From Pseudomonadota bacterium (GTDB taxonomy: Bacteria > Pseudomonadota > Gammaproteobacteria > Burkholderiales > Burkholderiaceae_F), in NCBI GenBank assembly GCA_023443095.1, contig JAEZVV010000071.1, positions 10,525 to 74,524 on the forward strand: a stretch of 64,000 nucleotides of DNA, read 5' to 3'. Below are positions 3,279 through 25,048 of the stretch, in pieces. Position 1 is the stretch's first letter, and the number at the start of each line of letters is the position of its first letter. The notes under the pieces were generated by a model. The model ran no database searches. It was not told the origin of the DNA and was given only the letters and a program-made list of their open reading frames with translations. A program made the position numbers and the translations under genes.

Positions 3279-3324
3279 TCTTCCTCCCGCGCCCATTATG
3301 GCGGCTTGGAAAGCCCCGACGGGA

Positions 3325-3339
3325 CGCGGATAATCCGCG
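3325..3339. promoter_or_regulatory. perfect 15-bp palindrome CGCGGAT-A-ATCCGCG in the divergent cyclase/Crp intergenic region (candidate operator)
   Basis: Read directly from the sequence. It lies between start codons 3278 (-) and 3399 (+). It does not match the CRP or FNR consensus. Confidence 0.25.
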
Positions 3340-3398
3340 CCGAGCGACACTGCCCAACAAACAACAGTCCGGCTGCCCCCACCGGCAAGGAGAAGACC

Positions 3399-4043
3399 AT
3401 GAGCCTCACGGAGCAGCACCTGGCTGCCATCGGCGACCCGATGGTTCGCGAACTCGCCGCACGCGGACAGCTGCGCAGCTTTCCCAAAAACGCGGTGATC
3501 ATCAACGAAGGCGACAAGGGCGAGTCGTTGTTTGTGATCCTCAGCGGCCGGGTCAAGGTCTACGTCTCGGACGACGACGGTCGCGAGATGATCCTCGACA
3601 TCCACGGCGCAGGCGACTACGTGGGCGAGATGTCGCTCGACGGCCGGCCGCGTTCGGCCTCGGTGATGACGCTCGACCCCAGCACCTGCTCCGTGGTCAC
3701 GCGCGATGACTTGCGTGCCGCCATCGCCGCCAATCCCGATGTGGCGATGAGTCTCATCTCGACCTTGATCGAACGCGCCCGCGTCGCCACCGACAACGTG
3801 AAGAACCTGGCCCTGATGGACGTCTACGGCCGGGTCGCGCGCCTCCTGCTGCAGATCGCCAAGGAAGACGGCAGCGGCAAGCTGGTCGTGCCCGAACGCA
3901 TGACCCAGCAAGACATCGCCGACCGCGTCGGCGCGTCGCGCGACATGATCAGCCGCATCTTCAAGGACCTCACCATCGGCGGCTACGTGACGGTCGACAA
4001 CCGCGTCATCACGATCAACCGCAAACCTCCCGCCCGCTGGTAG
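3399..4043 (+). CDS. Crp/Fnr family cyclic-nucleotide-binding transcription regulator
   Basis: cNMP-binding beta-roll (FVILSGRVKVY, GDYVGEMSL) plus a C-terminal HTH (QQDIADRVGASRDMISRIFKDL). AAGGAGAAG lies upstream of ATG 3399. Confidence 0.9.
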   Translation: MSLTEQHLAAIGDPMVRELAARGQLRSFPKNAVIINEGDKGESLFVILSGRVKVYVSDDDGREMILDIHGAGDYVGEMSLDGRPRSASVMTLDPSTCSVVTRDDLRAAIAANPDVAMSLISTLIERARVATDNVKNLALMDVYGRVARLLLQIAKEDGSGKLVVPERMTQQDIADRVGASRDMISRIFKDLTIGGYVTVDNRVITINRKPPARW

Positions 4044-4783: not shown

Positions 4784-5587
4784 TCAGGCCCCGGCGGGCT
4801 GGGCGCGGCGCCGGGCCCAGACGAACAGAGCCAGGCCCAGAACAATCATCGGCAGCGACAGCCACTGGCCTTGCGATAGCCCCAGGGCACGCAGCCCCAG
4901 GTAGGCATCGGGTTCGCGTGCGAACTCGGCCAGGAAGCGGGCGATGCCGTAGCCGATCAGAAACAGGGCGGCGACACTGCCGCGGGGCCGCGGCCGGATC
5001 GAATACAGCCACAGGACCACGAACAGCAGCAGGCCTTCGAGCCCGGCCTGGTAGAGCTGCGAAGGATGGCGCGGCAGGCCGTCGCCGGCCTGAGGAAACA
5101 CCATCGCCCACGGCCAGGTGCTGGCGTCGGCCACCCGCCCCCACAACTCGCCGTTGATGAAGTTGCCGATCCGGCCCGCCATCAGGCCCAGAGGAACCAG
5201 CGGCGCGACGAAATCGGCGATCTGCCAGAACGGCTTGGCACGGGTACGGGCGAACCAGAGCATGGCGAGGACCACGCCGATGATGCCGCCGTGGGCGGCC
5301 ATGCCGCCTTCCCAGACCTTGAAGATCGCGAGCGGGTTGGCAAAGTAGTAGGCCGGCTGATAGAAGAGAACAAAGCCGAGGCGGCCGCCGACGATCACTC
5401 CGATCACGCCGAAAAACAGCAGGTCCTCGACGTCACGCTTGCTCATGCCGCGCCAGGTCTGACGCGCGCGCCAGTTGCCCAGAAGCATGAAAAGCGCAAA
5501 ACCGACCAGGTACATCAGGCCGTACCAGCGCACGGCCAGAGGGCCGATCTCGAAGGCGATGGGATTGAACTGCGGATGAACGAGCAT
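4784..5587 (-). CDS. lgt: prolipoprotein diacylglyceryl transferase
   Basis: N-terminus [35 protein letters not shown] and HPSQLYQ are Lgt signatures. Confidence 0.95.
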
Positions 5588-5901
5588 GGGCGGTGGGCCG
5601 GAGCCGGGCTGATCGGAGCGGCCGCTATTATTGCGTACGAGTTCGCCGCCATCTCCTGCTCCCTCATCTCACCCCAGCCCGCAGAGCGCAGCCAGCTCCG
5701 GGGCAACTCCCAGCCCCCGCGCCGCGCCCTCCGCGGTCGACGCGCCGACGGGCTGTCGGGGCTTCCGGTTCGGCGGACCGAGGTGGGGGATAATGGTTGC
5801 GTTGCCCAGAACACGGCTCAAGAGGTTGTCCGCATGGGCGCGCGAGGGGCTCTTACTCCCGGGGCCCGCTTCCCTTCCGCGATCTCACTTCAGAAACCAC
5901 G

Positions 5902-7761
5902 ATGCCTGCATACCGATCCAAGACCTCCACCGCCGGCCGCAACATGGCAGGGGCGCGCTCCCTCTGGCGCGCCACCGGCATGAAAGACGAAGATTTCTCC
6001 AAGCCCATCATTGCGGTGGTCAACTCCTTCACCCAGTTCGTGCCCGGGCACGTGCACCTGAAGGACCTGGGCCAGCTCGTCGCGCGCGAGATCGAGGCCG
6101 CCGGCGGCGTGGCCAAGGAGTTCAACACCATCGCGGTCGACGACGGCATCGCCATGGGACACGACGGCATGCTGTATTCGCTGCCCAGCCGCGACATCAT
6201 CGCCGACTCGGTCGAATACATGGTCAACGCGCACTGCGCCGACGCCATGGTGTGCATCTCCAACTGCGACAAGATCACTCCCGGCATGCTCATGGCCGCG
6301 ATGCGCCTGAACATTCCGGTGATCTTCGTCTCCGGCGGCCCCATGGAAGCCGGCAAGGCGCGCCTGGCCAACCCCGACACCAAGGCGCTCGAGTTCAAGA
6401 AGCTCGACCTGGTCGACGCGATGGTGATCGCGGCCGACCAAGCCTATTCCGACGCCGACGTGGCCGAGGTCGAACGCTCGGCCTGCCCCACCTGCGGTTC
6501 GTGCTCGGGCATGTTCACGGCCAACTCGATGAACTGCCTGACCGAAGCGCTCGGCCTGTCTTTACCCGGCAACGGCACCGTGGTCGCGACTCACGCCGAC
6601 CGCGAGCAGCTCTTCAAGCGCGCCGGCCGCCGCATCGTCGAGCTGGCCCGCCAGTACTACGAGCAGGAAGACGAACGCGTGTTGCCGCGTTCGGTGGGCT
6701 TTGCGGCCTTCGAAAACGCGATGACGCTCGACATCGCCATGGGCGGCTCGACCAACACCATCCTGCACCTGCTTGCGATCGCGCGCGAGGCCGGGATCGA
6801 CTTCACCATGGCCGACATCGACCGCCTCTCGCGCGTCGTGCCGCAGCTGTGCAAGGTGGCGCCCAACACCAGCAAGTACCACATCGAGGACGTGCACCGC
6901 GCGGGCGGCATCATGGCCATCCTGGGCGAGCTCGACCGCGCCGGCAAGCTGCACACCGACGCACCCACCGTGCATGCCGCCACGCTCAAGGACGCGCTCG
7001 ATCAGTGGGACATCGCCCGCACCCGGGACGAGGCCGTCAGAACCTTCTACCGGGCCGGTCCGGCCGGAGTCCCCTCGCAGGTGGCGTTCAGCCAGGCGAC
7101 GCGCTGGCCCAGCATGGACCTCGACCGCGCCGAGGGCTGCATCCGCTCTTACGAACACGCCTACTCCAAGGAAGGCGGCCTGGCCGTGCTCACGGGCAAC
7201 ATCGCCCTAGACGGTTGCGTGGTCAAGACCGCCGGCGTCGACGAAAGCATCCTCGTGTTCGAGGGAACGGCGCACGTCACCGAATCGCAGGACGAGGCGG
7301 TGGAGAACATCCTCGGCGACAAGGTCAAGGCGGGCGACGTGGTGATCGTGCGTTACGAAGGCCCCAAGGGCGGCCCCGGCATGCAGGAGATGCTCTACCC
7401 CACCAGCTACATCAAGTCCAAGGGATTGGGCAAGGCCTGCGCGCTGCTGACCGACGGCCGCTTCTCGGGCGGCACCTCGGGCCTGTCAATCGGCCACTGC
7501 TCGCCCGAAGCGGCGGCCGGCGGCGCTATTGGCCTGGTGCGCGACGGCGACAGGATCCGCATCGACATCCCGAACCGCACGATCAACGTGCTGCTGTCGG
7601 ACGATGAACTGGCACGCCGCCGCGAAGAGCAGAACGCCAAGGGCTGGAAGCCCGCCCGGCCTCGTCCGCGCAAGGTGTCGGCGGCGCTCAAGGCCTACGC
7701 CAAGCTGGTCATGTCGGCCGACAAGGGTGCGGTGCGCGACCCGGCGCTGCTCGACGACTGA
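5902..7761 (+). CDS. ilvD: dihydroxy-acid dehydratase
   Basis: [27 protein letters not shown]-terminus plus the [12 protein letters not shown] and [10 protein letters not shown] motifs. Start is at the internal ATG 5902 of the longer track ORF. Confidence 0.95.
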
Positions 7762-7859: not shown

Positions 7860-9272
7860 TCAGTCGAACTCGCCCGCCTCGATGAGGTCGCAGAGCGTGG
7901 GGATGTGGGCGCCAAGCCAGCGGACTTCGACCACTTCCTCGTACCGCTCCCGTGTGGGCCGGCGGATGGTCTTGATGGCTGAGGGGGCAAAGAAGTCCAT
8001 GGTTGCCTCGGCGGGCTCCGATGGAGAGGATGGAGTCTTGACGCGCTTGCGGACCATGACGCGCTCCTCGATCTTGGCGAGATTATGGTACAGCAGCCGC
8101 GCCCGCAGAATGCGGAAGCTCTGGCCTCGGGTGATCCGATTGGAGTCCTTGATAAAGCGATTGAGCGACTCCGTGTACCCGTTGGTGAACGGGTAGTCGA
8201 ACACCGCGAAGACGTGCTGGTGCCAGTTGTCCACGTCGCAGGCGAGGCGCCTGAACCAGTGCGCCACCCGAGGGTCCAGCGTCCGCTTCCACGTCTCGAA
8301 CTCCCTCTCGGCGGCCGCGCGGCTGGGGGCATCGTAGATGTCGAAGAACGCCTCCTTGGCCGCCTGTGCGACGCCGAGCAACGGGTACTTGGTTCGCAGC
8401 CTGTCGAGAACCGCCAGTTCGCTCGGATCGAGCTTGGCTTCGCGCTTGAGCAGCAGGTGGCGCTCATCCTTGAGCGACAGGCGCTCCGTCCGCGCCTCCT
8501 TGCCCTTCAGTTCGGTCTTCCGAATGTGCTTGCGGAGCGTTTCCACGGCCTCGACCGCCATGCGCATGACGTGGAACTTGTCGGCGACGACCGGAGCGTG
8601 CGGGAAGTAGGTCGCGGCCATCTGGCGGTAGGCATTCCAGAGGTCGGTCACGACGACCTCCACCTTGTGCTTGTCCGCCATCGCCGTGAAGTAGGCGTCC
8701 AGATGCTTCTTAGTGCGGCCCGGCAACAGCTCAACGAAGGTATTGGCTTCGACGTTCGTGATCACGCCGAGGTAGCCCTTCCCGATCTTGACCTCGTCGA
8801 TCCCGAGCACGCGCGGCGTCGTAGGCATGTGCTGTGCTTCCAGCACGTGGATGCGCTCATCGACGATGTTTCGCACCGTGCGGGGATCAATCCCGGTCTG
8901 CCGGGAGACTTCCTCGAAGGTGAGGCGCAGACCGTGCTTCTCGACGAACTCGACGAGCCGCTTGGTCGCCAACCGGTCCTCGTGAATGTCCTCTAGCCGC
9001 TCGTGAAAGGTCTTGCCGCACTTGACACACAGATACCGGTGGCGCGTCAGAACGAGCTTGAGCGGCTTGCCGAACGTTGGGGTGTCGGCCACTTCCTGCT
9101 GTGAGGTGCCGTGCCCGACAAAGGCGCTGGCGCCGCAGTGGCGGCAGGCCGAAGGCGGTGCGCTCGCCTTGACGCGGACCAGCGAGTACGGGGCGTCCGG
9201 CGCCGATCCCATCTCCATGAAGCTCAGCGAGGGCAGACCGAGCAGGTCGCGCCCTCCGAAACTGTCTGCCAT
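7860..9272 (-). CDS. ISL3 family transposase
   Basis: 470 aa. N-terminal zf-ISL3-like CRHCGAS...HG. DDE_Tnp_ISL3-like core (LGIDEVKIGKG, VVTDLWNAYR, VADKFHVMRM, NGYTESLNRFIK). GGAGGG SD before ATG 9272. Confidence 0.9.
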   Translation of the reverse strand: MADSFGGRDLLGLPSLSFMEMGSAPDAPYSLVRVKASAPPSACRHCGASAFVGHGTSQQEVADTPTFGKPLKLVLTRHRYLCVKCGKTFHERLEDIHEDRLATKRLVEFVEKHGLRLTFEEVSRQTGIDPRTVRNIVDERIHVLEAQHMPTTPRVLGIDEVKIGKGYLGVITNVEANTFVELLPGRTKKHLDAYFTAMADKHKVEVVVTDLWNAYRQMAATYFPHAPVVADKFHVMRMAVEAVETLRKHIRKTELKGKEARTERLSLKDERHLLLKREAKLDPSELAVLDRLRTKYPLLGVAQAAKEAFFDIYDAPSRAAAEREFETWKRTLDPRVAHWFRRLACDVDNWHQHVFAVFDYPFTNGYTESLNRFIKDSNRITRGQSFRILRARLLYHNLAKIEERVMVRKRVKTPSSPSEPAEATMDFFAPSAIKTIRRPTRERYEEVVEVRWLGAHIPTLCDLIEAGEFD

Positions 9273-9401
9273 CGCTCACCCTCCGGCATCGAGCCACGCC
9301 CCCTTGGTCTGCCTGCGGTCGCGCTGTTATGCTGTGACTGATTGAATGCAAACCGTACGCAACTGGTAGGCGTTTTGCTTCATACTATCACCGGAGCGAA
9401 C

Positions 9402-9590
9402 ATGGCGAAAGAGTCGTCCGTCACCGTCACGCTGCGCGTGCCGGAGAGCATCAGAGAGTTGTTGCGCGCGGCTGCCGAGAAAGACCACCGCAGCATGGCC
9501 AACATGGTGGAGGTGCTGATCCTGCGGCACTGCGAGTCCAATGGAATTTCGGTCGCGCGGAAACGAACAGTGCGGGCGACAAAGGAATAG
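9402..9590 (+). CDS. ribbon-helix-helix (CopG/Arc/MetJ-like) DNA-binding protein
   Basis: 62 aa. VTVTLRVPESIRELLRAAAEKDHRSMANMVEVLI fits a beta-strand plus two helices. GGAG lies 6 nt before ATG 9402. It is the first gene of the plus-strand cargo. Confidence 0.65.
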   Translation: MAKESSVTVTLRVPESIRELLRAAAEKDHRSMANMVEVLILRHCESNGISVARKRTVRATKE

Positions 9591-9642
9591 CGGCCGAGGC
9601 TCATCGGGTGAGCTTTAGACAATCCAAACTAACCAAGAACCA

Positions 9643-11367
9643 ATGCTTCCCCGTGAAAAGGCCAAATTTCCTGCTCTTCTGCGAGCGTTGCAGGGGGTCG
9701 TCCGCGCAGGGAAAACGCCAGAGCGTGTAGTCGCGGCCGTACTCAATGCAGTGTTGGATGAGCGTTACCCGCTGTTGGTTCGGTTGACTAGCAGCAAAGC
9801 TGTTCAGTCGCACCCGGCGGTGGCGAATTTTGTGCGCTGGCTTGTGCCCATGAATGTTGCCGAGATCGGTTTTTGGGTGAGTTCCGCGTACGCGCAGTTG
9901 GTTCTGCCCGAGTTTCGGCGGAAGCGGGCCATGTTCTTTACACCACCGATGATGGGCGAACGACTCCTCGACCAGATGGAGCGGGCTGGCGTGAACTGGG
10001 GAGCGGCACGCGTGATCGACATTGCCTGCGGTGGCGCCGCCTTCTTGGCGCCTGCGGGGTTGCGCATGGCGCAGCGGGTCGCGGCGACCGGCGCCACTGC
10101 CAATCAGGTGCTGGTCCATGTTGAGAGCCACCTGCACGGGATCGAGATCGAGCGCTTTCTCGCGAAGCTGTCGGTCACCTTTGTCGGCATGGCGCTCTAC
10201 CCGTGGATCGTCGCAGCAGGCCGGTTGCCGAAGCTCAGGGTCATCGTTGGGAACGCTATGGGGCGCCCTGCCATCCTGTCGGAGCGCTTTGATGCCGTGA
10301 TCTGCAATCCGCCTTACCGCAAGCTCACGAGTGAGGAAGCCGCCGAGCTTCCGGCCAAGCTCCAGCGGTTGGTCTACTTTCAACCGAACCTGTACAACAT
10401 GTTCATGGCCCGGTCGCTGAACCTGCTTTCTCCGATGGGTGTCGCTGGCCTGCTGACACCGATGAGCTTCCTTTCGGGGCGTTCATTTGTCCCACTGCGG
10501 CAGCATCTTGCGACCCAGCGGCGAGTAGCGAGCATCGACATCGTTGAACAGCGGCTCGGAGTCTTCCTGGGTGTGCAGCAGGACACGGCAATCAGCACCT
10601 TTGCCCCTCTTCTAAATCGCCCGACGCGGACCAAGGTGTTTGCCGCGAGTAGCGACCAGCGGTGGCACTCCGCCGGCAAGGTCGTCCTGCAGGCCACTGG
10701 CGCGCCGTGGGTGCTCCCCCGCAATGCGGACGACGCTACGCTTATCGCTCACAGCAACGGGCAGCGTCTCGCCGACTACGGCTACGAGCCCTGCATCGGC
10801 GACGTAGTCCCGCTCCGAGAGACGCGAGCCTTGTATGCAAGCCACGCTGAAGCCAAAGCGGCCGGAGTCAAGCATGCGGTGCCAATGCTGCGTGCCGCCG
10901 AGATTCGCTCCGACGGTAGCCTCGCATTCCCACGCGCAGGGCGCTCAGACTGCTTCCTTGACGCCAGCAGCAATGCTCAGGGGGTAATTCGGCTTCCGTG
11001 CGTGGCGCTTCATCGTGTCAGTTCGACGGACCAACGGCGGCGATTCGTGGCGGCCCCCGTGCCCATTGAGTTGCAGCAAACTCATGACGGAGTGATCGGA
11101 GAGAATCACGTCATCTTTCTGACCGCCACACGGCCGGATGCGCTTGCGCCGGACCTCTTGGTGCGCATCCTTGGCTCTGAGCCTGTGGATCGGATGTTCC
11201 GCTGTCGCTCTGGATCGGCCAACGTGTCCACCTACGAGCTGTCGCACCTGCCCATGCCTGATGCCTCGCTAGTGGAGCAGGCGCTGGCAGCCGGAGCCGA
11301 CATTGATACGGCGGTGCTCCGAGGTTACGGCATCGACTCGACCAATCATCAAGGCGCGCCACTATGA
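9643..11367 (+). CDS. N6-adenine DNA methyltransferase (gamma class, Eco57I/N6_Mtase-like), DrmMI-like
   Basis: Motif I VIDIACGGAAF and motif IV VICNPPY. About 250 aa of C-terminal region is a putative target-recognition domain. The stop overlaps the next start (ATGA). Confidence 0.85.
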   Translation: MLPREKAKFPALLRALQGVVRAGKTPERVVAAVLNAVLDERYPLLVRLTSSKAVQSHPAVANFVRWLVPMNVAEIGFWVSSAYAQLVLPEFRRKRAMFFTPPMMGERLLDQMERAGVNWGAARVIDIACGGAAFLAPAGLRMAQRVAATGATANQVLVHVESHLHGIEIERFLAKLSVTFVGMALYPWIVAAGRLPKLRVIVGNAMGRPAILSERFDAVICNPPYRKLTSEEAAELPAKLQRLVYFQPNLYNMFMARSLNLLSPMGVAGLLTPMSFLSGRSFVPLRQHLATQRRVASIDIVEQRLGVFLGVQQDTAISTFAPLLNRPTRTKVFAASSDQRWHSAGKVVLQATGAPWVLPRNADDATLIAHSNGQRLADYGYEPCIGDVVPLRETRALYASHAEAKAAGVKHAVPMLRAAEIRSDGSLAFPRAGRSDCFLDASSNAQGVIRLPCVALHRVSSTDQRRRFVAAPVPIELQQTHDGVIGENHVIFLTATRPDALAPDLLVRILGSEPVDRMFRCRSGSANVSTYELSHLPMPDASLVEQALAAGADIDTAVLRGYGIDSTNHQGAPL

Positions 11368-14195
11368 ACGCGTGGCAGAACGGCCGAGGTGGGCGTGACA
11401 ATCTGCCGCGTCGGCTGAAAGACCGCGAGGCTGCATTGAAGCGTCAGAGGGAACTGGCCTCACGCTCTGGTGTGCGACGCAAGGTGCCGCCGGACATGCC
11501 AGCAGATGTTGCCAAAACATCTGCGGTCGAGGCGCCGGCACCAAACCAAGCGCCCGAAGTCATGCTGGCGGGACAGCCGATTCTGTCGCTGCTGACCGAG
11601 GGCAAAGGCAAGCCGTTACCACAGCATTTGACGGCGGCCCTGACCGAAGCGGTCGATGCCTATTTGCGTGCTGCCCAATCCGGTACGCGCGAGCTGCTGC
11701 TTCTGTGGCCGGGATCGCTTACTTGTCTGCCCCTTATTCACTCCATTGCCACCCTCGAACGGTGGGCCAATGGCTACAAGCTAGGTTTCCGGGCCGCGCT
11801 CTACCCGGCCACCAAGGCTTCGTTCCGGGAGCTCAACCACCTGTTCGTAGATCGCGACGAAATCGACGCCATGCACGTGGACGTGCAGTCTGTGAGCAAC
11901 CCGCCGGGCGCTCTGTCCAAAGAGCGTTGCGACGAGAAGGACCTCATGTTCTACGCCCTCAACAGCATGCGGGCGGAAGCAGTGACGGAGGGTCTGCAGC
12001 CGTGCCTCAACGAACTGCTGCCGCACTTTGACATCGTGACCGGCGAGTGGACTGAAATTGCAAAGCTCAACTATGGCCGCCACTACCTTGACCACCTCTC
12101 GAAAAAGCTGAAGCGACTCGCCTACAAGCGTGACCTGCGAGAGCGTGTGCTGCCCGTGCTAGGGCAGGCTCAGACGGTGCCTGACGCCATCTTTGGGCTG
12201 TCGCACAAGATGAATAAGCGTCAGATCGAGGACGCTCTCAAAAACCTGAAAAGGTTGGGCTCGCTGAATGTCATCCTGCTTGATGCGACCCGGTCGTCGT
12301 TCGCTCGCACCGAGAAGCTGATGCGCCGAATCGGCGCCGTGCTTGCGTTGATTGACGAGGTGTTTGGCGCCAAGGGACCAGGTGTGCTGATCTTTACAAA
12401 CGACGCTCGGCAAATGTTGATGCTGCGTGCAGCGCTGAATCGTGAAGAGGCGCGCCACAACTTTCGCATTGGTCCGACGCGGGGCCTGTGCCAGCGTGAT
12501 AACAACCTCGGCTTGCAGCCGCAGCCCTATCAGCCTCCGGTTGCCCCAGCACCGAGTGTCATTAGCGTCGAGATCACCGACCGGGAATCGGCGAGGCTCC
12601 TAAACCAAGCCTTTCGAATGGGGCGCGATCTCGCAAGCTTCGAGCCGGCGGCCGCCGCGTTGCAGTCTGCCGCGAAGCACCTGCAGACAATGGTCAATCT
12701 GCCAGCCTCGGCCGGGGTGTTGCACGGCTGGCTCAACGAGACGCATGCCGACAGCGAACAGAGGCGACATTTCGACTGGATCGACTATCGTGCCCGGCTA
12801 CGGAACGCCGCAAAGGAAGTGCCCATTGAATTGGCGGCCCGCCTTGCCGAGTGGGCCGATGTCGCCGACAAGCTTCTACGCGCTCACGAGGACGGCACTC
12901 CACTCGCGCGAGCATTGGTGTCACGCATCAAGCTCCGCGCCGGGAACGACGCTCGGGTGCTGGTGCTGACAGTCAACCCGTTCTACGCCAAGCTTGCTTC
13001 CCAGTTCTTCCACGCCGACCCGGCCAACGAACCGCTGCGAGACCGAGTCCGCTTTATCGGCGTTACCCACCTCCGGCCGCAAGTGGAGACAGGGTGGGCC
13101 ACGCACGTTGTCGCCTGTGCGCTGTCGCCCGAGCTGCTGCGGTGGACGGTCACCACACCAACCCTACCGGGTCCGCTGGACTTTCTCCTTACCCAACAGA
13201 GCGCGGTCAGCGCGAACTATGCGCTAGAACCGGTACTTCAGCACCCGAGCTTCGCCCCGTACTTCGAGCGTGTGCGGGCGATTTGCGGCCCCATCGCAGC
13301 CGTGCGGGGCCTGCTGACCGGTATCCCGCCCGGTCACGACTACGAGCCGCCACTCATCACCCTGCCGCCGAAAGGCTCCGATGGAGAAGGGAGCAGCGGG
13401 AGTGACGACGGCGAGCGCTGGCCGACCGACTACGTGGACATCGTGCTCGACGATGGTCGCCACATCCAGCGCGGGCGCGGCGCGCGGGTCTATGTCTACG
13501 ACCCGTCCGCCCGGGACAGTCGCACCATGGGCTTCCGCGCGGCACACGCTGAGGAGTTGCGCCCGGGCTGGCTACTTTTCGTCATGTCGGACGAGTTGCG
13601 CGATGCGGCGGAAGCGACCTTTGCGCTAGCAGGCATTACCTTCGCCGAAGCAAACCGCTACGAACAGATACTGCGGCTCTACCACGCGCAAGTGCGCCTC
13701 GCGGTGCAGGCCCGATTCCCCGGCTGCAACGTCGCTGACGCTGCGCGCGGCATTCACGGCGCCATGATCGCGCTCGATCCGAAGGCGAAGACAGTTTCGG
13801 CCACAAACATTCGGTACTGGATCAACCTGAAGCGGGCCGAGGACACGCCTTACGTTGATTTGATGCCACAGGCACCACGGCATCAGGAGACCTTTAGGCT
13901 GTTCATGATGGCGCTGGGTTTCGACGCAAAGGACATCAACAACTTCTGGCAGGGCGCAGTGCGCCCGGTACGCGGTAGCCGCATCTCCGATGGGCAGAAC
14001 CTGATCGACCACTACGCTCGGGTGTTGTTCGATCCGGAAGCGGCGGCTGCATACGACCGCCTCACCCCAGCCATGCTGGACAGCCTGCGCGCCAACGTGC
14101 TGCACAACGTCGCCGAGGTGGTCGAGGCGCGCCTTGTAGTTGTCGCGCCTCCTACGGAAGACGACGAGCCAAAAATCGCTGCGAATTTCGCCTGA
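11364..14195 (+). CDS. 943-aa DISARM-associated protein of unknown function (occupies the DrmD/DrmE position)
   Basis: Long ORF translationally coupled to the MTase gene. No Walker A, DEAH, HKD or nuclease motif was seen. It has only faint helicase-like segments (LLLLWPGSL, VILLDATRSSF, VLIFTNDARQML). Confidence 0.8.
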   Translation: MNAWQNGRGGRDNLPRRLKDREAALKRQRELASRSGVRRKVPPDMPADVAKTSAVEAPAPNQAPEVMLAGQPILSLLTEGKGKPLPQHLTAALTEAVDAYLRAAQSGTRELLLLWPGSLTCLPLIHSIATLERWANGYKLGFRAALYPATKASFRELNHLFVDRDEIDAMHVDVQSVSNPPGALSKERCDEKDLMFYALNSMRAEAVTEGLQPCLNELLPHFDIVTGEWTEIAKLNYGRHYLDHLSKKLKRLAYKRDLRERVLPVLGQAQTVPDAIFGLSHKMNKRQIEDALKNLKRLGSLNVILLDATRSSFARTEKLMRRIGAVLALIDEVFGAKGPGVLIFTNDARQMLMLRAALNREEARHNFRIGPTRGLCQRDNNLGLQPQPYQPPVAPAPSVISVEITDRESARLLNQAFRMGRDLASFEPAAAALQSAAKHLQTMVNLPASAGVLHGWLNETHADSEQRRHFDWIDYRARLRNAAKEVPIELAARLAEWADVADKLLRAHEDGTPLARALVSRIKLRAGNDARVLVLTVNPFYAKLASQFFHADPANEPLRDRVRFIGVTHLRPQVETGWATHVVACALSPELLRWTVTTPTLPGPLDFLLTQQSAVSANYALEPVLQHPSFAPYFERVRAICGPIAAVRGLLTGIPPGHDYEPPLITLPPKGSDGEGSSGSDDGERWPTDYVDIVLDDGRHIQRGRGARVYVYDPSARDSRTMGFRAAHAEELRPGWLLFVMSDELRDAAEATFALAGITFAEANRYEQILRLYHAQVRLAVQARFPGCNVADAARGIHGAMIALDPKAKTVSATNIRYWINLKRAEDTPYVDLMPQAPRHQETFRLFMMALGFDAKDINNFWQGAVRPVRGSRISDGQNLIDHYARVLFDPEAAAAYDRLTPAMLDSLRANVLHNVAEVVEARLVVVAPPTEDDEPKIAANFA

Positions 14196-14231
14196 AACGG
14201 CGCTCTACTTCAACCGATCCTCCCGCGCGCT

Positions 14232-17200
14232 ATGCCAACTGTTCGTAGCAACCCCGACGCCATCGCCACGTCGCTCAAGGAGGCGGTCGCCGACGCCCTT
14301 GGCAACATCGTCTTCGGTCACAGTTCCGGTAGCGGCGAATTCGGGGTCGCTGTCTACGGCGCACAGCCAAGCCGGCTGTTTGTCTCCGGCTTCCTCTTGC
14401 CCCAACGGGAGACTGACGACGGCGACGAGGTAACGAGCCCGATCTGGATTTCCTCGCACGGCCTCGACCTGCAGGTTGCCGCCCACGGCACAGGGACGAT
14501 CACGCTGCAGCCGCGCTTCGCCGTATACCTGCGGGTGTTTCCAACGGCTGCCGACCTGCTGCGTCCGGACTGCGCACTTCGCTTACCGCAGCTCAATGCG
14601 GCCGTGCGAGGGCAGTTGGCTGCGGTCTATCGAACTGCCTTAGCCGCGCGCTGGGCGACGCTGCAGAGCAAGTACGCAACGCGCAGCAAGTGCCCGCAGT
14701 GGAAAGACATCCAAGCCGAGGAATACGCAAAGGCGTGCAAGCAACTGGGCGTGCCTGATTGCGACTGGATGCAGCCGCAGGCGCTGGAGGCGCAGGCGGC
14801 ACCGCCGCCGGAGAACAATGCCGAAAATGAAGGCGGCGCGCAGGAGATGGCTGCTGCTGGCGGGGCGAAGAGCTTCGAATTCGATGCGGCCAGTGACGCC
14901 CTCTTCGAAGTGGTCGAACCTCCGCCCAAGTGGCTCCGCCTAGAAATGGAGCCGCCGCCTCTAACGCTCGATCCGTATGCAGCGCCGGATGTGCGTGCCG
15001 CCGCCATCGAGGCGAACGAGGCGGCAATGGAACAGTACGTGCAGCATCGCATCGCGGCGTGGCTCGCCGACACCGATCCGATCACAGGCGGCGCGCTGTG
15101 GGTGTTCCGCAAGGGCGAGACGGTGAAGGCGTCCGAGCGCGTCAACTGGGACGCCTACCTCGCCGCCATGCGGGCGCGCAATGCCGACCCCTACGTCCCC
15201 GAGATCAAGCCCTGCTGGGACATCGACGTGGTCGTGGACTACACCGACCCGACCCGCTTCAACCTGCACCTTGCTCTGGAGAACCACAGCACGCCGGTGG
15301 TCCGTGGCAGCGACCGGATCGAGCACGCGCTGTTCCAGACCGAAGTCGAGGTGTACCTGCCGGTCGCCACGCACCGCAGCCTCCGGCTTGACCGGGTGGA
15401 GCCGTCCTACCGCTACAACCGCTACCTCACATACCCGGCCCTAGGCTTCAACGGCAGCGTGGAGGAGTTGGCGACCGACGAAGGCTACAAGCGCCTGCGC
15501 ACGACGTGGGCGCCGCGCTTCGTGCAGCCGCGCGTGCGTCCGCTCCCATATCCGGGCGTGGTGTGCGGGCTGCGGGCGTTGGCTACGGCCCCGGACCTCT
15601 CCGGACTCTCACCGCTCGTGACCGAGTTCCAGAAGTGGATCGCGGAGCTGCCTGCTCGTATCGACCCCACGGCTGGCGCGCGGGACGCGGCCGAGGCCAA
15701 GCGCGAGCAAGAGGCGTTCGCGGCCCACATCAAGGCGTGGACGCTGGAGTCCGAGGCCATCGCCGCCGGTATTGCGATCCTCGAAGAGTCGCGCGTCCAA
15801 TGGAGTGCGCCCGGCCCGCAGGCCGATCCCAAGGGCATTCCGTACGAAGCGTGGCAAGCCATGAACGAGACCATGGCCAACCTGATGCAGCGCCAGCGAG
15901 GCGACGACAACGGCCAGTGGTACCTGTTCCAATTGGCGTTCATCCTCGCTTCGCTGCCGGCGGTGGTTACCCGGATGCCGGAGTTCCGCCACCACTACAA
16001 CCCGAAGCGCGACGACAGTGTGACGCTGCTCTACTTCAGCACCGGCGGCGGCAAGTCGGAAGCGTTCTTCGGCTTGCTCGCCTTCACCCTGTTCTTCGAC
16101 CGGCTGCGCGGCAAGACGTTTGGTGTGACCGCGCTCGTGCGCTACCCGCTCCGACTTCTGACCGTGAACCAGTCGCAGCGGATGGCGCGCATGCTGGCGC
16201 AGGCCGAGCAGGTGCGGGCGGCCCGCCACTACCCCGGTGCGCCGTTCGCCATCGGTTTCTGGGTCGGCAGCGGCAGCACACCCAACCACCACAACGACCG
16301 AGGCGTGAAGGACGTGCCGTTCGTGGACGAGGTAAAGGTTTCCGAAGCCAAGCTGATGGACGCCAACGCTCACTACGCCGCCGCGCGGAAGGCTTGGCGC
16401 AAGCTGCCGCACTGCCCGTTCTGCGGCGGAGAGACCGGCCTGCGGCGCCTGCGCGACGCCGATGGTGGCACGCTGGCCCACGTGTGCTTCAACGCCAAGT
16501 GCTTCTCCCAGCGTAACGGACTGGGCACACCGCTGCCGTTCTACATCTGCGACGAAGACATCTACGACCTCGCGCCGGCGGTGGTCTTGGGTACCGTCGA
16601 TAAGCTGGCGATGATCGGCCACAGTGCGACCACGCTGCGCCAGGTGCTTGCGATGTTTGGCGCCGCGCCGTGGCGCCACGTCACCACTGGACGCCTGCAC
16701 ATGCCGACGTTGAAGCATCTCGCTGACGGGCCCGGCGCACACGGCTACGAGGCTGTTCACCCGTGCTACGCCGGCGGGGTAAAACTCTTCCACGACCCGC
16801 AGCCGGCGCTGATCGTGCAGGACGAAGCGCACCTCTTGGACGAGTCGCTGGGTAGCTTCTCCGGTCTCTTCGAGTCGGCGCTCGACGCCGTGTTTTCTGA
16901 GCTTGCAAAGGCGCAGCGCGGGGTCATTGCGACTGACGCCCACGGCAAGCGCCGCCGGGCCAAGGTGATCGCCGCCTCGGCCACTGTGGCTGACCCTGAG
17001 CGGCAGTTGCAGCACCTTTACCAGCGCCACATTCCGGCCACACAGTTCCCGCACCCGGGCCCGGACATCTACAGCTCGTTCTACGCCGGACCGCAACCGC
17101 CGGATGAGGTGGGCCGCGCCGCGCTCCCGGCCGACCTCGTCGAACTGCGGGCGAAGACCGGCCGTTTTTACCGCGCAATCATGACTAACGGGCGGCCGCA

Positions 17201-18410
17201 CACCGCGACCTCCGTAACCGTGCTGGCGACCTTCCACTCCATTGTCACCAGTCTGCTGGGACAACTCCTCCCGGACGATCCGACCGAGCACGCGGCGGCG
17301 CGCGACCTCCTGCTGCGCCACCTGTCGCCGGCGGTGACTGAGACGTTCCTGCGGGACGCGCTGCAGGCGTCCACCGCCAGCGAACTGGCAACTCTGATCG
17401 ACCTGCACCGGGTCGCCCTTACCTACGTCACCAACAAGAAGGGCGGCGACCAGATACAAGCGGCCGAGGCGGAGGAGACGCGCAAGCGCCATGCTGCTCT
17501 GCAGTTGCCCTTCAATGGGCTGCGCGCAGAGCTGATCACCGGCTCAGTCGATCAGGGCGCGATCAACAACACGGTCGAGGCCACACGCAACCGGCCCGAC
17601 CCAGGGCAGCCGTTCCGACCGCTCGACGGTGAGTTGCGCTCCATCGTCGCGACCTCCGCTATTTCGCACGGCGTGGACATCGAGGAACTGAACTCGATGT
17701 TCTTCGCCGGCCTCCCCTCGGACGTAGCTGAGTACATCCAAGCCTCATCTCGGATCGGCCGCAGCCACGTCGGCTTTTCGCTCCTGATCCCGACGCCGCA
17801 GCGCCGCCGCGACCGCTACGTGGTGGAGGTGTTCGACATCTTCCACCGCTTCTTGGAACGGATGGTGAAGCCGGCCGCCATCGACCGTTGGGCCGAGCGG
17901 GCAGTGTTGCGGGTCCTGCCGAGCTTCTTCCAGTCGGCGGTGTGCGGCGCCATTGCGCTGGGCGAACTGATGACCCTGCCGGACGACGAAAAGGGCAAGT
18001 GGCGGCTGTTGCAATACGTGGCGCAGGTGCTCGACCTGCACGCACAGGACAAGAAGGCGTTCGAGGACATGGTGACCGACTTCATCGAGTTGGCAATTGG
18101 CCTCACCGACAACTTCGCGCCCGACGGCAAGGAGCACTACCAGCGCATGGTGCGCGAGAACATCCGCTCGTTCTTGGACGAGATGCGCATGGGGGCCTAC
18201 AAGAACACAGCCGTCTTCAACTATTTCAACGACCAGAATGTGCTGCGTCGGCCAATGACCTCGCTGCGCGACGTGGATGAAGCCGGCACTCTGCGCCGGG
18301 GCGGCAGCGACGAGAATCCCGACGGTCGCGGCCGGTTGCACGACGCGCAGGTCATCGCCGTCATGGACTTCATCCGTTACGGCACGGCCAAGGCAGGAGA
18401 AAGCGAATGA
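14232..18410 (+). CDS. drmA: DrmA-like superfamily-2 DEAH helicase
   Basis: Walker A STGGGKSEAF, DEAH box IVQDEAHLL and motif VI SSRIGRSHVG. A CxxC...CxxxC zinc-ribbon insert lies at 16413-16502. The gene is followed by a DUF1998 gene. Confidence 0.85.
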   Translation: MPTVRSNPDAIATSLKEAVADALGNIVFGHSSGSGEFGVAVYGAQPSRLFVSGFLLPQRETDDGDEVTSPIWISSHGLDLQVAAHGTGTITLQPRFAVYLRVFPTAADLLRPDCALRLPQLNAAVRGQLAAVYRTALAARWATLQSKYATRSKCPQWKDIQAEEYAKACKQLGVPDCDWMQPQALEAQAAPPPENNAENEGGAQEMAAAGGAKSFEFDAASDALFEVVEPPPKWLRLEMEPPPLTLDPYAAPDVRAAAIEANEAAMEQYVQHRIAAWLADTDPITGGALWVFRKGETVKASERVNWDAYLAAMRARNADPYVPEIKPCWDIDVVVDYTDPTRFNLHLALENHSTPVVRGSDRIEHALFQTEVEVYLPVATHRSLRLDRVEPSYRYNRYLTYPALGFNGSVEELATDEGYKRLRTTWAPRFVQPRVRPLPYPGVVCGLRALATAPDLSGLSPLVTEFQKWIAELPARIDPTAGARDAAEAKREQEAFAAHIKAWTLESEAIAAGIAILEESRVQWSAPGPQADPKGIPYEAWQAMNETMANLMQRQRGDDNGQWYLFQLAFILASLPAVVTRMPEFRHHYNPKRDDSVTLLYFSTGGGKSEAFFGLLAFTLFFDRLRGKTFGVTALVRYPLRLLTVNQSQRMARMLAQAEQVRAARHYPGAPFAIGFWVGSGSTPNHHNDRGVKDVPFVDEVKVSEAKLMDANAHYAAARKAWRKLPHCPFCGGETGLRRLRDADGGTLAHVCFNAKCFSQRNGLGTPLPFYICDEDIYDLAPAVVLGTVDKLAMIGHSATTLRQVLAMFGAAPWRHVTTGRLHMPTLKHLADGPGAHGYEAVHPCYAGGVKLFHDPQPALIVQDEAHLLDESLGSFSGLFESALDAVFSELAKAQRGVIATDAHGKRRRAKVIAASATVADPERQLQHLYQRHIPATQFPHPGPDIYSSFYAGPQPPDEVGRAALPADLVELRAKTGRFYRAIMTNGRPHTATSVTVLATFHSIVTSLLGQLLPDDPTEHAAARDLLLRHLSPAVTETFLRDALQASTASELATLIDLHRVALTYVTNKKGGDQIQAAEAEETRKRHAALQLPFNGLRAELITGSVDQGAINNTVEATRNRPDPGQPFRPLDGELRSIVATSAISHGVDIEELNSMFFAGLPSDVAEYIQASSRIGRSHVGFSLLIPTPQRRRDRYVVEVFDIFHRFLERMVKPAAIDRWAERAVLRVLPSFFQSAVCGAIALGELMTLPDDEKGKWRLLQYVAQVLDLHAQDKKAFEDMVTDFIELAIGLTDNFAPDGKEHYQRMVRENIRSFLDEMRMGAYKNTAVFNYFNDQNVLRRPMTSLRDVDEAGTLRRGGSDENPDGRGRLHDAQVIAVMDFIRYGTAKAGESE

Positions 18411-20680
18411 GCCCCAACCCCGCGCCGATCCACGGCTTCGACGACGAGAACGAAGAGCGTCGCGAACGCACCGCCCCCACCATGAGCCGCTCATGGGGGC
18501 AGCTCGCGACGGCGTACGCCCCCGGCGCCTTCTTCACGTTCGAGGGCGGGCTGGGCGCCTGCCTCGCCCAGTCCGATGGGCAGGCCGGTCTGCAAGAGGC
18601 CAACATTTCGCCCACGGTACGCCACCAGATCGTGATGCGCTTCGAGGACGCGGTGAAGTCGTGGTTCAACGCCGCGATGCACTGCCGGCCCAACGACAGC
18701 AAAAGGCCGCCGGTGCTCGCTTCACAGTGCGTGTCGCAGTCGCTGATCAACAGCAACTACAACGGGCTGCGGCCGGTAGATGGCTCGCGCTACGTGTTCC
18801 TGTCACCCGAGCGCATGGGCTACGTCCCAGCGCCGCTAACTTTCGTCTGCAACCACTGCGGGCTCTACCGCTACTTCGGCAGTGTGCGTGACTTTGCCGC
18901 GCGCAAGGACGCGGCGCTCAACGTAAAGTGCTCGCACAGCGCCGGCAACTGCCACTGGCGTCAACTCGATGTGATCTTCGTCCACTGGTCCGGCAACTGG
19001 GAGCCAGTGCGTCCCGGTAAGTGGTACTGGGACAACAACGCAAAGGAAGTGCAGGAGCCGTTCGACCGCTGTCGGCAGTGCGGCGGCAATGAGTTCCGGC
19101 TAGAGACGCGGCACAGCGAATCGGCCATCGGTCGCTGGTACTTTGTTTGCGCCAACCCCGCGTGCAAGCATGAGGACCACGACGGTTGGGTGAAGAACGA
19201 CCACGACACGCTCGACATCGTGCGCGAGGACTTCATCCGCTTGCCGGCAGTGGCACACATGGAGCCGGTGTCCTACCGGGCGTCGGCAGCCTACTACCCG
19301 CAGGCTGATCAGTTCATCTTGTTCGCGGACCACCAAGAGGGCCTGCTGGCTTTGCTCGACCCGAGCCGCCAAAACGACCTCAAGGACTTCATCGCGCAGC
19401 GCTTCGGATTCGGCCGCGCCCGCCCGTCGATGAGCGAGATCGAAACCATCCTCAAGCAGTCAGAGAAGGGCGCAGCGTCGCTCGCCCGGTTCAGGCTCAA
19501 GGCGGAGATGCTGGGGAAGCTCCCACAGCCGCTGACGGGGCTCTACGTCGAGATGGCCGAATCGCTCAAGGACGATTTGCGCGAGATCGAAAATAGTTGG
19601 TATTCCGAGGGGTTGGTGCGCGAGAAAAACAGTCTTCCGGTGGCGCTCATCAACGGCATCGACGAGCGCAAGAACGACTTCGACGCGCGATACGATCCCT
19701 ACCGGCTGGTGGTAGAACACGAGGCGCTGAAACAGAATCACTTGGAGGCGCCCCGGGAGGCGACCGGGCGCTCGCCCTTCGTCCACTTCGACCGACTCGA
19801 CAAGGACTTGGCGCCCAAGGACGAGGCAGAGCAGGCACAGCAGGAAGCCGCGACGCGGCTGATGCTCGACAGGCTGGGGCTGGACACCATGGGCCTCATT
19901 CGCAACTTCAAGTTGTGCAAGTTCACGTACGGCTTTACACGAGTCAGCGCGACGCCCATCGTCGAGAAACACCGCATCCGAATGCCGGTACGGCTCAACC
20001 TGTTCCCGCCCGTGAAGATGGAACAGGGAGCATCGCGCACGCCAATCTACGTCATCACGCAGGAGAACGAAGCGTTCTACGTGCGACTCAACCCAGCGAT
20101 GGTGTACCAATGGCTGGGCAGTCTCAATCTCGCCGATATGTTCACGTGGGACCCAGCGGGCGAGGTGCCGCTTGGCGCCCTGCTCTTGGAGCGGGCGCAG
20201 CCGATGCAGCGTTTCCTTGCTAACGTGCATCGGGAACAGGACCCCCTCGCTTACTACTACACCTACACCCTGCTCCATACCTATTCGCACGTGATGATGC
20301 GGGCCATAGCCGAACTCTCGGGGCTCGATGCCACCTCGCTTGGCGAGTACCTGTTCCCGGCCGACCTGTCCTTCGTCATCTACCGCAGCGGCACCACGCT
20401 CGATCTAGGCAACCTGTCGTCGCTCTGGCGAAACGACAACGCCAACTTTCTGCGCCACATCGGCGAGCCGACGACGCTGGCCTGCAATTCGGGCAGCCTG
20501 TGCGCGGAGCGTGGTGGCGCCTGTCCGGACTGCATCCTGATCCCGGAGCAGTCGTGCATCGCCCAGAACCAGCTCCTCTCGCGCAGCGTGCTGCGGGGCG
20601 GTCCCCGTCCGCGCGAGGACGGGGGCACCCACCGCATTCCCGGGTACCTCGACATCGTCCATGCTGCCTTGGTCTCCTGA
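18407..20680 (+). CDS. drmB: DrmB-like DUF1998 protein
   Basis: C-terminal TLLHTYSHVMMRAI plus the Cys cluster CNSGSLCAERGGACPDCILIPEQSC (DUF1998 signature). ATGA overlap with the helicase gene. Confidence 0.85.
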   Translation: MSPNPAPIHGFDDENEERRERTAPTMSRSWGQLATAYAPGAFFTFEGGLGACLAQSDGQAGLQEANISPTVRHQIVMRFEDAVKSWFNAAMHCRPNDSKRPPVLASQCVSQSLINSNYNGLRPVDGSRYVFLSPERMGYVPAPLTFVCNHCGLYRYFGSVRDFAARKDAALNVKCSHSAGNCHWRQLDVIFVHWSGNWEPVRPGKWYWDNNAKEVQEPFDRCRQCGGNEFRLETRHSESAIGRWYFVCANPACKHEDHDGWVKNDHDTLDIVREDFIRLPAVAHMEPVSYRASAAYYPQADQFILFADHQEGLLALLDPSRQNDLKDFIAQRFGFGRARPSMSEIETILKQSEKGAASLARFRLKAEMLGKLPQPLTGLYVEMAESLKDDLREIENSWYSEGLVREKNSLPVALINGIDERKNDFDARYDPYRLVVEHEALKQNHLEAPREATGRSPFVHFDRLDKDLAPKDEAEQAQQEAATRLMLDRLGLDTMGLIRNFKLCKFTYGFTRVSATPIVEKHRIRMPVRLNLFPPVKMEQGASRTPIYVITQENEAFYVRLNPAMVYQWLGSLNLADMFTWDPAGEVPLGALLLERAQPMQRFLANVHREQDPLAYYYTYTLLHTYSHVMMRAIAELSGLDATSLGEYLFPADLSFVIYRSGTTLDLGNLSSLWRNDNANFLRHIGEPTTLACNSGSLCAERGGACPDCILIPEQSCIAQNQLLSRSVLRGGPRPREDGGTHRIPGYLDIVHAALVS

Positions 20681-21518: not shown

Positions 21519-21605
21519 GTCACCCCGCCAACAGACGACGGTGAGGTCGTTCTTGGGGGCCGCTGCATCAGCGATGGCTAGGTAAATTGGGCGACGCCGT
21601 CCCGA

Positions 21606-21747
21606 GGCCACCCACGCCGTTTTCCGTTTCGGGGGTGCGGCCACCAACATCCTGACTCACCGCGCCACCCACGCTGGATTCCGTTTTGGCGTTGCGGCCT
21701 CCCGGTGCCCCTGATACCCCGGCACCCACGCTCCTTTCCGGAAACCC
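21606..21747 (+). repeat. three direct copies, 57 bp apart, of a CACCCACGC-N4-6-TTCCG unit; the third copy is the terminal IR
   Basis: CCCAC cores at 21611, 21668 and 21725. Copies 1 and 2 share about 32 of 39 positions (GCCACCCACGC..TTCCGTTT.GG.GTGCGGCC.CC). Confidence 0.6.
21725..21747 (-). repeat. terminal inverted repeat, cargo-distal end (reverse complement GGGTTTCCGGAAAGGAGCGTGGG)
   Basis: Pairs with 7822-7844 and is followed directly by T8 (21748-21755). Confidence 0.55.
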
Positions 21748-21815
21748 TTTTTTTTAGGCCTAGCCCAGGCCCGCCAGGGTTCGTTCACCAGCGAGGCGTT
21801 GTTTCAGGCCCCGCA

Positions 21816-22528: not shown

Positions 22529-22566
22529 GTCCGACGCCAGGCCTGCCGGTTCGCCGGCAAAGAAAA

Positions 22567-22587
22567 GGGCGCTGCGGCGCCCTTTTT
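22567..22587 (+). terminator. rho-independent terminator after the cytochrome c gene
   Basis: GGGCGC-TGCG-GCGCCC followed by TTTTT. Confidence 0.6.
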
Positions 22588-23987: not shown

Positions 23988-24002
23988 GCCGGCATGGCAC
24001 GG

Positions 24003-25038: not shown

Positions 25039-25048
25039 AGGAAGCACC

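Follow-up and report, generated by a model that had tools for sequence, protein, structure and literature searches.

A predicted SF2-fold pseudo-helicase encoded directly upstream of drmA in a distinct DISARM-like operon

The protein described here is encoded in a DISARM-like operon of a Pseudomonadota bacterium, within a 64-kb stretch of contig JAEZVV010000071.1 (64,000 nucleotides, referred to below as the window). It consists of 943 amino acid residues and is labeled X. Its open reading frame (ORF), 11364-14195 in the ORF listing of the window, begins with an ATG codon and is on the + strand, as are the other genes of the operon. Coordinates are those of the window and residues follow the numbering of X, unless another locus or protein is named. 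We propose, with a probability of roughly 60%, that X is a non-catalytic pseudo-helicase of the superfamily 2 (SF2) fold and serves a distinct DISARM-like operon as its dedicated accessory subunit. It is important to note that DISARM is a widespread anti-phage system. The clade of DISARM-like operons considered here carries a different accessory protein, in which the helicase fold has apparently been kept and the ATPase lost.

X has no match in Pfam, NCBIfam, PADLOC or, by phmmer, among the PDB sequences. A word-indexed search retrieved 18 homologues of 38-82% identity, all designated as hypothetical (alignment A1). When 1.84 billion representatives were searched exhaustively with phmmer, 214 proteins matched at E<=1e-3 and 117 at E<=1e-10, and the family comprises no fewer than 214 clusters at 50% identity. 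On the basis of the 18 homologues and the 214 representatives, the X gene is coding beyond doubt. The stronger phmmer matches are mostly 860-960 residues long and align with X from end to end. The rest are shorter fragments, and many of these correspond to the C-terminal region of X alone. A MAFFT alignment of 90 full-length members was used for the conservation counts given below, and 89 of these members form alignment A2. A second homologue search with the A2 profile gave almost no new relatives, and a contig scan with A1 found one X locus, in Rhodocyclus purpureus. The 18 close homologues have no PADLOC match down to E<=10, and ten distant members have no match in either PADLOC or NCBIfam. 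In RefSeq the homologue on plasmid pPNAP03 of Polaromonas naphthalenivorans (WP_011798346.1) is labeled a hypothetical protein. The X family is unnamed and widespread. Literature searches turned up neither an account of X nor one of a third class of DISARM. In their survey of the YprA family, Bell et al. refer to "many uncharacterized DISARM-like classes", which are left undescribed, and X is not mentioned in the supplements (10.1101/2025.09.15.676423).

The structure of X was predicted with AlphaFold2 (AF2) on alignment A1, with a mean predicted local confidence (pLDDT) of 73.5 and a predicted TM-score (pTM) of 0.44. The chain begins with a conserved helix, RLKDREAALKRQRELASR (residues 13-36, 11400-11471), seen both in the alignment and in the model. 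It is followed by a disordered linker rich in Pro and Ala, which extends to about residue 65 and has pLDDT values below 50 at residues 36-57. Lobe 1 is a RecA1-like α/β domain spanning residues 76-405 (11589-12578), delimited by the AF2 secondary structure, the Foldseek matches and conservation. It contains a helical insertion at residues ~164-270, and its charge has a median of +6 across the family. A second helical insertion, residues 407-527 (12582-12944, pLDDT 80-90 in the AF2 model), forms a domain between the lobes. From the domain order we infer that this domain is equivalent to Hel2i of the RIG-I-like and Dicer helicases. Lobe 2, a RecA2-like α/β domain of residues 530-650 (12951-13313, from AF2 and Foldseek), has strands 532-536, 562-566, 581-584 and 605-609 alternating with helices. 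The acidic, Gly/Ser-rich linker that comes next, residues 651-688 (13314-13427), is predicted to be disordered (pLDDT below 50 at 650-687). It carries a net charge of -5 and is the least conserved segment of X.

When the model was compared with the PDB by Foldseek, all 50 of the matches listed were helicases or translocases, and 14 of them had E<=1e-3 with probabilities of 0.90-1.00. The top matches are MDA5 (7nga, 1.6e-6), Dicer-2 (7v6c, 5.8e-6), RIG-I (4a2q, 3.7e-5) and LGP2 (5jaj, 2e-4). Lower in the list are ALC1 (2.8e-3), DHX9, UvrD, Brr2 (5m59, 4bgd), Prp22, CHD1, CSB and the DUF1998 helicase MrfA (2.4e-2). X is predicted from this model to contain two RecA-like lobes, as SF2 helicases do, and so uniform a list speaks against a generic resemblance of the Rossmann type. 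The initial annotation, made by eye from the sequence, had suggested a catalytically dead SNF2-like scaffold. The RecA-like lobes on which that suggestion depended do appear, as the α/β lobes 76-405 and 530-650 of the model, and a two-lobe SF2 fold is indeed what is predicted. The SNF2 part of the suggestion fares less well. The SNF2 proteins ALC1, CHD1, CSB and SMARCAD1 have E-values of 3e-3 to 4e-2, three to four orders weaker than the best RIG-I-like match, and neither of the Pfam families SNF2_N and SNF2-rel_dom is matched by X. The RIG-I and Dicer helicases lead and the SNF2 proteins trail because the order in X is lobe, helical insert, lobe and C-terminal module. In terms of the model, an SF2-helicase fold is supported, while the term SNF2-like is not specifically supported.

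The helicase motifs are vestigial. Residues were assigned to motifs from their order and the secondary structure, not from superposition. The Walker A pattern GxxxxGK[ST], or even GK[ST], occurs in none of the 90 full-length members, X included. At the position of motif I, in the first strand-loop-helix of lobe 1, the family has h-h-h-h-W115-P116, with W115 in 87 and P116 in 89 of the 90 sequences. The position of motif Ia, after the next strand, is occupied by YPAT (147-150), of which P148 is invariant (90/90). At motif II, X has VILLD307-A-T and the family h-h-h-h-D-x-T. D307 is found in 77/90 and is never followed by Glu to give DE. X has only two DExx-like strings, DEID (165) and DEKD (190); both fall within predicted helices, and neither is conserved across the family. 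The position of motif III, 38 residues past motif II, reads FT345-N-D347 in X and h-h-h-T345-D-[DE]-P in the family (T345 in 74/90); in X the D and P of the consensus are replaced by N346 and A348. A conserved acidic cluster formed by D307, D/N346 and D/E347 is located at this vestigial active site. At motif VI, LLTQQ (608-612, within LLTQQSAVSAN 608-618) contains no Arg in X or its close relatives. One Arg, at position 612, is present in many distant members but is not conserved.

The absence of ATPase motifs from X, noted in the initial annotation, is thus confirmed for the whole family in the case of Walker A and of the DE pair of motif II. Of the three segments that it had quoted (residues 110-134, 302-313 and 340-358), all exist in X and the middle one is located at motif II, as proposed, but the other two had been given the wrong motif labels. 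The segment with ELLLLWPGSL, taken for motif Ia, sits at the motif I (Walker A) position, in the first strand-loop-helix of lobe 1. The segment GVLIFTNDARQ, taken for motif IV and the start of the second lobe, is at the motif III position in lobe 1, 38 residues past the D-A-T strand. Lobe 2 starts near residue 530 in the AF2 model, after the helical insert 407-527. X has neither the GxGK[ST] of SF2 motif I nor the DExx of motif II nor the arginine fingers of motif VI. Judged from these positions, X is almost certainly unable to hydrolyze ATP by the canonical SF2 mechanism, because the P-loop is replaced by Trp-Pro, motif II has no catalytic Glu, and motif VI of X and of its close relatives lacks arginines.

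Conservation in the family is highest in the C-terminal module (residues 689-925), which had been overlooked in the initial annotation. Its first section is a small β module, residues 689-742 (13428-13589), recognized by profile and by Foldseek as a Hint/intein-like piece. The A2 profile matches the PolC intein of Pab (2lcj) among the PDB sequences with E=5.4e-4. The Foldseek matches are the RadA, PolII and VMA inteins and the hedgehog Hint domain (rmsd ~2 Å over ~57 residues, probability 0.94-0.99, E 0.2-1). X was rejected as an intein, which has a complete Hint fold with a catalytic Cys/Ser/Thr at +1 and a terminal His-Asn: in X the Hint fold covers only ~57 residues within a continuous conserved protein, and no splicing motifs are evident from the alignment. 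A weak Hint-like signal is likewise present in the protein encoded upstream of drmA on a Lactiplantibacillus plasmid (L012, 5205-7607).

The second section is a helical domain, residues 743-925 (13590-14138), defined by AF2 and conservation. Y773 and W819 are invariant, F847, W862, R870 and G877 are conserved at >=90%, and the motifs RYWINL and PQAPRH are recognized. When the C-terminal module was modeled separately (AF2, alignment A4 of 96 sequences), pLDDT was 93.1 and pTM 0.83. The helical domain has no Foldseek match in the PDB or BFVD, the best E-value being 0.07 with a probability below 0.1. Given its confident model (pLDDT 93) and the lack of any PDB match, the C-terminal domain is a candidate for a new fold or binding module.

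The operon in the window consists, in order, of the genes for a short Eco57I-type N6-adenine (N6A) methyltransferase (MTase), X, a long DrmA, DrmB and the PLD protein DrmC. These neighbors of X had been named correctly in the initial annotation, and Pfam and PADLOC matches support them. The MTase is a stand-alone N6-adenine DNA MTase of the Eco57I type, 574 residues in length (9643-11367). It matches Eco57I (5e-12) and N6_Mtase (2e-5) in Pfam. In PADLOC it matches MTase_II PDLC03338 over residues 64-562 at 4.5e-122 and DrmMI at merely 9.8e-5, and it is far shorter than DrmMI or PglX. The TGA stop codon of the MTase gene and the ATG of X share a 4-nt ATGA overlap (context CTATGAAC), in agreement with the proposed translational coupling. 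The stop codon of X is separated from the start of drmA (14232) by 36 nt. DrmA is a DrmA-like SF2 helicase of 1392 residues (14232-18410; PADLOC DrmA 1.4e-86, NCBIfam DrmAS 2.8e-106), and the matches cover only its residues 334-1002. The DrmB-like protein has 757 residues (18407-20680; PADLOC DrmB 1.9e-17, NCBIfam DrmB_fam 3.9e-10), and its start codon forms an ATGA overlap with the stop of drmA. The DrmC-like PLD nuclease has 285 residues (20661-21518; Pfam PLDc_2 and PLDc, PADLOC DrmC 3.3e-12, NCBIfam DrmC_I 6.7e-13).

It is important to compare the window with related loci. Ten independent loci were compared with it: a P0006 contig, L001/L002, L003/L004, L005, L006, L007 (pPNAP03), L015 (Rhodocyclus purpureus), L016, L017 and L018. 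A DrmA-like helicase gene lies directly 3' of X in 11/11 loci, even where the identity of X falls to 22-25%. The location of X directly upstream of drmA, where DISARM systems carry drmD or drmE, thus holds for the window and the ten further loci. The DrmA-like protein has 1380-1462 residues in the nine loci with a complete gene; in L018 the contig ends within the gene, which leaves 681 residues. The genes of X and DrmA usually overlap from stop to start. An Eco57I-type MTase is encoded in every locus, and its usual place is immediately upstream of X. In L006, however, the order is X-DrmA-DrmB-PLD-MTase, which is the class 2 order with the MTase at the 3' end of the operon, and in L017 the MTase gene is divergent and on the opposite strand. 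X still overlaps drmA in both. Because the position of the MTase gene varies and the adjacency of X and drmA does not, X tracks drmA rather than the MTase, and it is genetically locked to drmA. By tblastn, the identities of X, MTase, DrmA, DrmB and DrmC to those of the window are 45/52/64/64/57% for L003 and 23/29/37/35/32% for L006. The five operon genes diverge in step, and X diverges fastest.

The DrmA proteins of this clade also differ from the canonical ones at the N-terminus. In tblastn comparisons the X-linked DrmAs align with the window DrmA from residue 1-12, while canonical DrmAs of class 1 and class-2-like systems (L009-L014) align with it only from residue 328-563. The N-terminal ~330 residues of the window DrmA (14232-15230) are conserved only in X-associated DrmAs and lie outside the NCBIfam DrmA model. 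The X-associated clade thus has its own DrmA N-terminal region. DrmA residues 1-330 are a candidate docking region for X.

The core of a DISARM system is present in the window, with drmA (SF2 helicase), drmB (DUF1998) and drmC (PLD) in one operon, and so is an associated DNA methyltransferase, the Eco57I/N6_Mtase protein encoded at 9643-11367. The accessory features of the two known classes are not found. Class 1 has DrmD, an SNF2-like protein (pfam00176) with intact motifs, whereas X has no SNF2_N, Helicase_C or DrmD match, no Walker A and no DEAH. Class 1 also has a large PglX-like DrmMI of about 1300 residues, to which the MTase of 574 residues does not correspond. As for class 2, no C5 methylase DrmMII (pfam00145) is present among the ORFs tested within ~8 kb on each side. 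Neither class fits because DrmD and DrmMI of class 1 and DrmMII of class 2 are all lacking. The operon is a DISARM-type system that fails the defining accessory features of class 1 and class 2. By sequence X is not DrmD. We rate the operon as a distinct DISARM-like class, defined by an accessory protein that is a predicted pseudo-helicase with an unmatched C-terminal domain.

A possible mechanism is the following. In published work the DrmAB motor is autoinhibited; 5'-overhang DNA activates it, and methylation has a damping effect (PMC9142583). X would be a stoichiometric, non-catalytic partner of this motor and would take the slot of the active SNF2 helicase DrmD in class 1 or of the uncharacterized DrmE in class 2. 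It would probably dock through its conserved C-terminal module on the clade-specific N-terminal extension of DrmA, and its positively charged dead helicase core would probably hold DNA. In this way X would help to decide which DNA is engaged by DrmAB-DrmC, while the methyltransferase would mark self DNA. What DrmD and DrmE do is explicitly left unexplained in the structural and genetic studies of DISARM (PMC9142583; 10.1101/2021.12.28.474362). Should X prove to be a subunit through which DrmAB is regulated or senses its targets, it would be a tractable handle on the choice of targets by DISARM and would add a case from bacteria of a pseudo-helicase that acts as an adaptor in immunity. A bolder version seems distinctly doubtful to us. 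In it the X family would constitute a third DISARM class, with an ATPase-dead RIG-I-like shell, joined to a C-terminal domain of novel structure, as the self/non-self discriminator, which clamps DNA, reads m6A or ends, and gates DrmAB through the DrmA N-terminus. If true, this would give the first mechanistic role to a gene in the DrmE position.

Several observations weigh against the assignment of X as a pseudo-helicase partner of DrmAB. The helicase assignment comes solely from one predicted structure and its Foldseek matches. The TM-scores of these matches are low (0.13-0.21) and the rmsd values large, which we attribute to the uncertain domain orientation (pTM 0.44) and to normalization by 943 residues. 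No sequence-profile link of the X family to any helicase was found by hhalign: the A2 profile gave E=0.42 against 13 DrmAs, and the family gave E=0.56 against three DrmDs, while a control comparison of DrmA with DrmD gave E=5.7e-6 and a probability of 85%. In agreement with this, two profile searches of the PDB sequences gave no match for the helicase-like part of X and returned only the weak Hint segment. The acidic cluster D307, D/N346 and D/E347 could mean that X has kept, or newly gained, an activity that depends on metal. In the window, X overlaps the MTase gene but is 36 nt from drmA, and the methyltransferase could be the primary partner of X. The interaction of X with DrmA, its DNA binding and its loss of ATPase are all points that we infer.

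One alternative is that X is a very divergent DrmE, a member of the class 2 accessory family beyond the reach of hidden Markov models. This is possible, although we rather doubt it, and it is compatible with the pseudo-helicase reading. DrmE is the accessory protein of class 2 DISARM, with an uncharacterized function (Ofir et al. 2018, summarized in 10.1101/2021.12.28.474362), and it is essential in the one class 2 system tested (10.1101/2021.12.28.474362). Like X, DrmE is large, of similar size, has no annotated domains and is encoded directly upstream of drmA-drmB-drmC; the class 2 order of L006 fits as well. A class-2-like locus of Lactiplantibacillus (L012) allows a comparison. It encodes a C5 methylase, a protein of 801 residues (5205-7607) in the DrmE position, DrmA (861 bits) and DrmB, and the 801-residue protein likewise matches no family in PADLOC or NCBIfam. 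A homologue search with this protein found eight relatives. The resulting nine-sequence profile is collinear in hhalign with the X family over X residues 441-731 (lobe 2 and the β module), covering 270 columns with E=0.051, but the probability is merely 1% and the match is non-significant. Other results are also less favorable to a remote DrmE. None of the 28 X-family members scanned matches PADLOC, which includes DrmD models and is assumed to include DrmE models, and X and the ten distant members have no NCBIfam match. In addition, the MTase of the X system is of the N6-adenine Eco57I type, while the DrmE system has the C5 methylase DrmMII that defines class 2.

The DrmE position was also inspected in class-2-like loci on Bacillus and Priestia plasmids. 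It holds short unannotated ORFs, at 4035-6544 in L013 (326 and 507 residues) and at 4030-6501 in L014 (330, 206 and 278 residues), and these ORFs upstream of drmA have no PADLOC match. The DrmE slot appears to be occupied by several unrelated or highly divergent proteins.

It is unlikely that X is instead a partner of the MTase, a target-recognition or activating subunit which controls methylation rather than DrmAB, in the manner of BrxHII, DrmD and ArmA with their PglX-like methylases. The ATGA overlap in the window and the equally tight MTase-X junction in L001, L005 and L016 are consistent with such a role, and a helicase-like gene beside a methylase recurs in BREX, DISARM I and ARMADA (10.1101/2025.09.15.676423). 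However, the MTase gene is four genes away in L006 and on the opposite strand in L017, the two loci in which X keeps its overlap with drmA. The match of the MTase to a full-length stand-alone type II model (64-562) also argues that it probably has its own target-recognition region.

Still less likely is that X is a new enzyme, an effector such as a nuclease, acting at the lobe 1 site (D307, T-D-[DE]-P) or in the C-terminal domain (Y773, H774, W819, R870). The acidic residues of lobe 1 are conserved despite the loss of the rest of the ATPase site, and invariant Y773 and W819 and near-invariant R870 are found in a domain without a structural match. The drmC gene is dispensable in the characterized DISARM systems (10.1101/2021.12.28.474362) and is lacking in L017, so that another effector is conceivable. 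On the other hand, no nuclease or other enzyme family is matched by X in sequence or fold, as the initial annotation had also stated for nuclease motifs. X itself has N346 and A348 in place of the consensus D and P, and the conserved aromatic residues and Arg would equally fit a binding surface.

Finally, the low TM-scores, large rmsd, pTM of 0.44 and missing profile support could mean that X is made of generic Rossmann-like α/β domains unrelated to SF2, but this is very improbable, since all 50 matches listed are two-lobe helicases or translocases with no other Rossmann-type enzyme among them (14 at E<=1e-3), and the conserved residues, which fall at the ends of strands, follow one another as motifs I, Ia, II and III do and with matching spacing, including the gap of 38 between II and III.

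The X clade is carried by plasmids and by chromosomal islands in Proteobacteria and is also present in many metagenomes, and X marks a DISARM variant that standard annotation overlooks. DrmA, DrmB and DrmC of the window all match NCBIfam models, but with scores under the curated cut-offs. In the one RefSeq record examined, the operon of pPNAP03 (NC_008759.1, 89447-101356), no gene is named as DISARM by RefSeq/PGAP; the names given are N-6 DNA methylase, hypothetical, DEAD/DEAH box helicase, hypothetical and PLD. Because of these sub-cut-off scores and the unnamed pPNAP03 genes, the clade is systematically missed by standard annotation. Among the DrmA-bearing plasmids examined, those annotated as DISARM are all class 1 with DrmD.

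Some related loci have additional features. On plasmid A of Sinorhizobium americanum (L008, NZ_CP013108.1, 8859-23326) the operon is decaying. Its X is truncated or frameshifted, with an ORF of 534 residues annotated and similarity reaching upstream of that ORF, and drmB is split by two IS66 insertions. In L006 a divergent BrxR-type regulator (5499-6395; WHD_BrxR and BrxR_CTD) flanks the operon. In L017 the operon is flanked by Tn7-like TniQ and TniB genes (14772-18118); it has no PLD gene, and an extra gene for 363 residues is located between the divergent MTase and X.

In the window, a complete transposase of the ISL3 family (7860-9272, - strand; DDE_Tnp_ISL3 1.7e-50, with a zinc ribbon and HTH) lies ~370 bp upstream of the MTase gene. 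The GC content (profile 8000-22000) is 62-63% from the transposase through drmC and 67-70% in the flanks. This difference suggests that the stretch from the transposase to drmC is a horizontally acquired island, small and mobile. The flanking ORFs that could be identified have housekeeping functions (Lgt, an ABC transporter, a CHASE2 cyclase and thiazole kinase), and several others have no Pfam or PADLOC match. No other defense genes were found beside the operon, the flanking ORFs tested having no PADLOC or defense-related Pfam match. The CHASE2 protein, which is unrelated to X, has 797 residues with a CHASE2 sensor and an adenylate/guanylate cyclase domain (1518-3911, - strand) and adjoins lgt (4784-5587, - strand). 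Long ORFs of 453-658 residues surround the island at 5631-7607 (+), 22479-24122 (-) and 24920-26281 (-). They have no Pfam or PADLOC match and may be spurious or overlapping-frame artifacts of the high GC content.

Among the known systems, DrmD of class 1 resembles X in its SF2 two-lobe fold (predicted in the case of X), its location upstream of drmA and its proximity to an N6A methylase. BrxHII and ArmA are related SNF2-like proteins. DrmD, however, has GLGKT and DEAH and matches the DrmD model of PADLOC with 1392 bits, while X has neither motif and does not match that model. The gene order also differs, with the MTase before X in the X locus and DrmD before DrmMI in class 1. DruH of Druantia type III is a large, non-enzymatic protein that binds single-stranded DNA and has no ATPase. 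It consists of six Ig-like subdomains with globular ends, and its gene lies directly upstream of that of DruE, a YprA-family helicase-nuclease comparable to a fusion of DrmA, DrmB and PLD (10.64898/2026.05.12.722862). X was rejected as a homologue of DruH, whose Ig-like domains contrast with the α/β and helical domains of X and for which X has no match in PADLOC (Druantia models there being assumed). The analogy is functional only.

The cores of the RIG-I-like and Dicer helicases (MDA5, Dicer-2, RIG-I, LGP2) share with X the order of RecA1, helical insertion, RecA2 and C-terminal module. They are active RNA-dependent ATPases in which motifs I, II and VI are intact, their identity to X is 9-10% with TM-scores of 0.13-0.21, and their C-terminal domains are unrelated to the C-terminal module of X. 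Going by the model, the relation is one of architectural resemblance and not of membership. X, a separate polypeptide with no P-loop, may also be compared with the C-terminal cassette of Brr2, an inactive SF2 cassette that still binds nucleotide and that regulates or scaffolds the active helicase to which it is fused.

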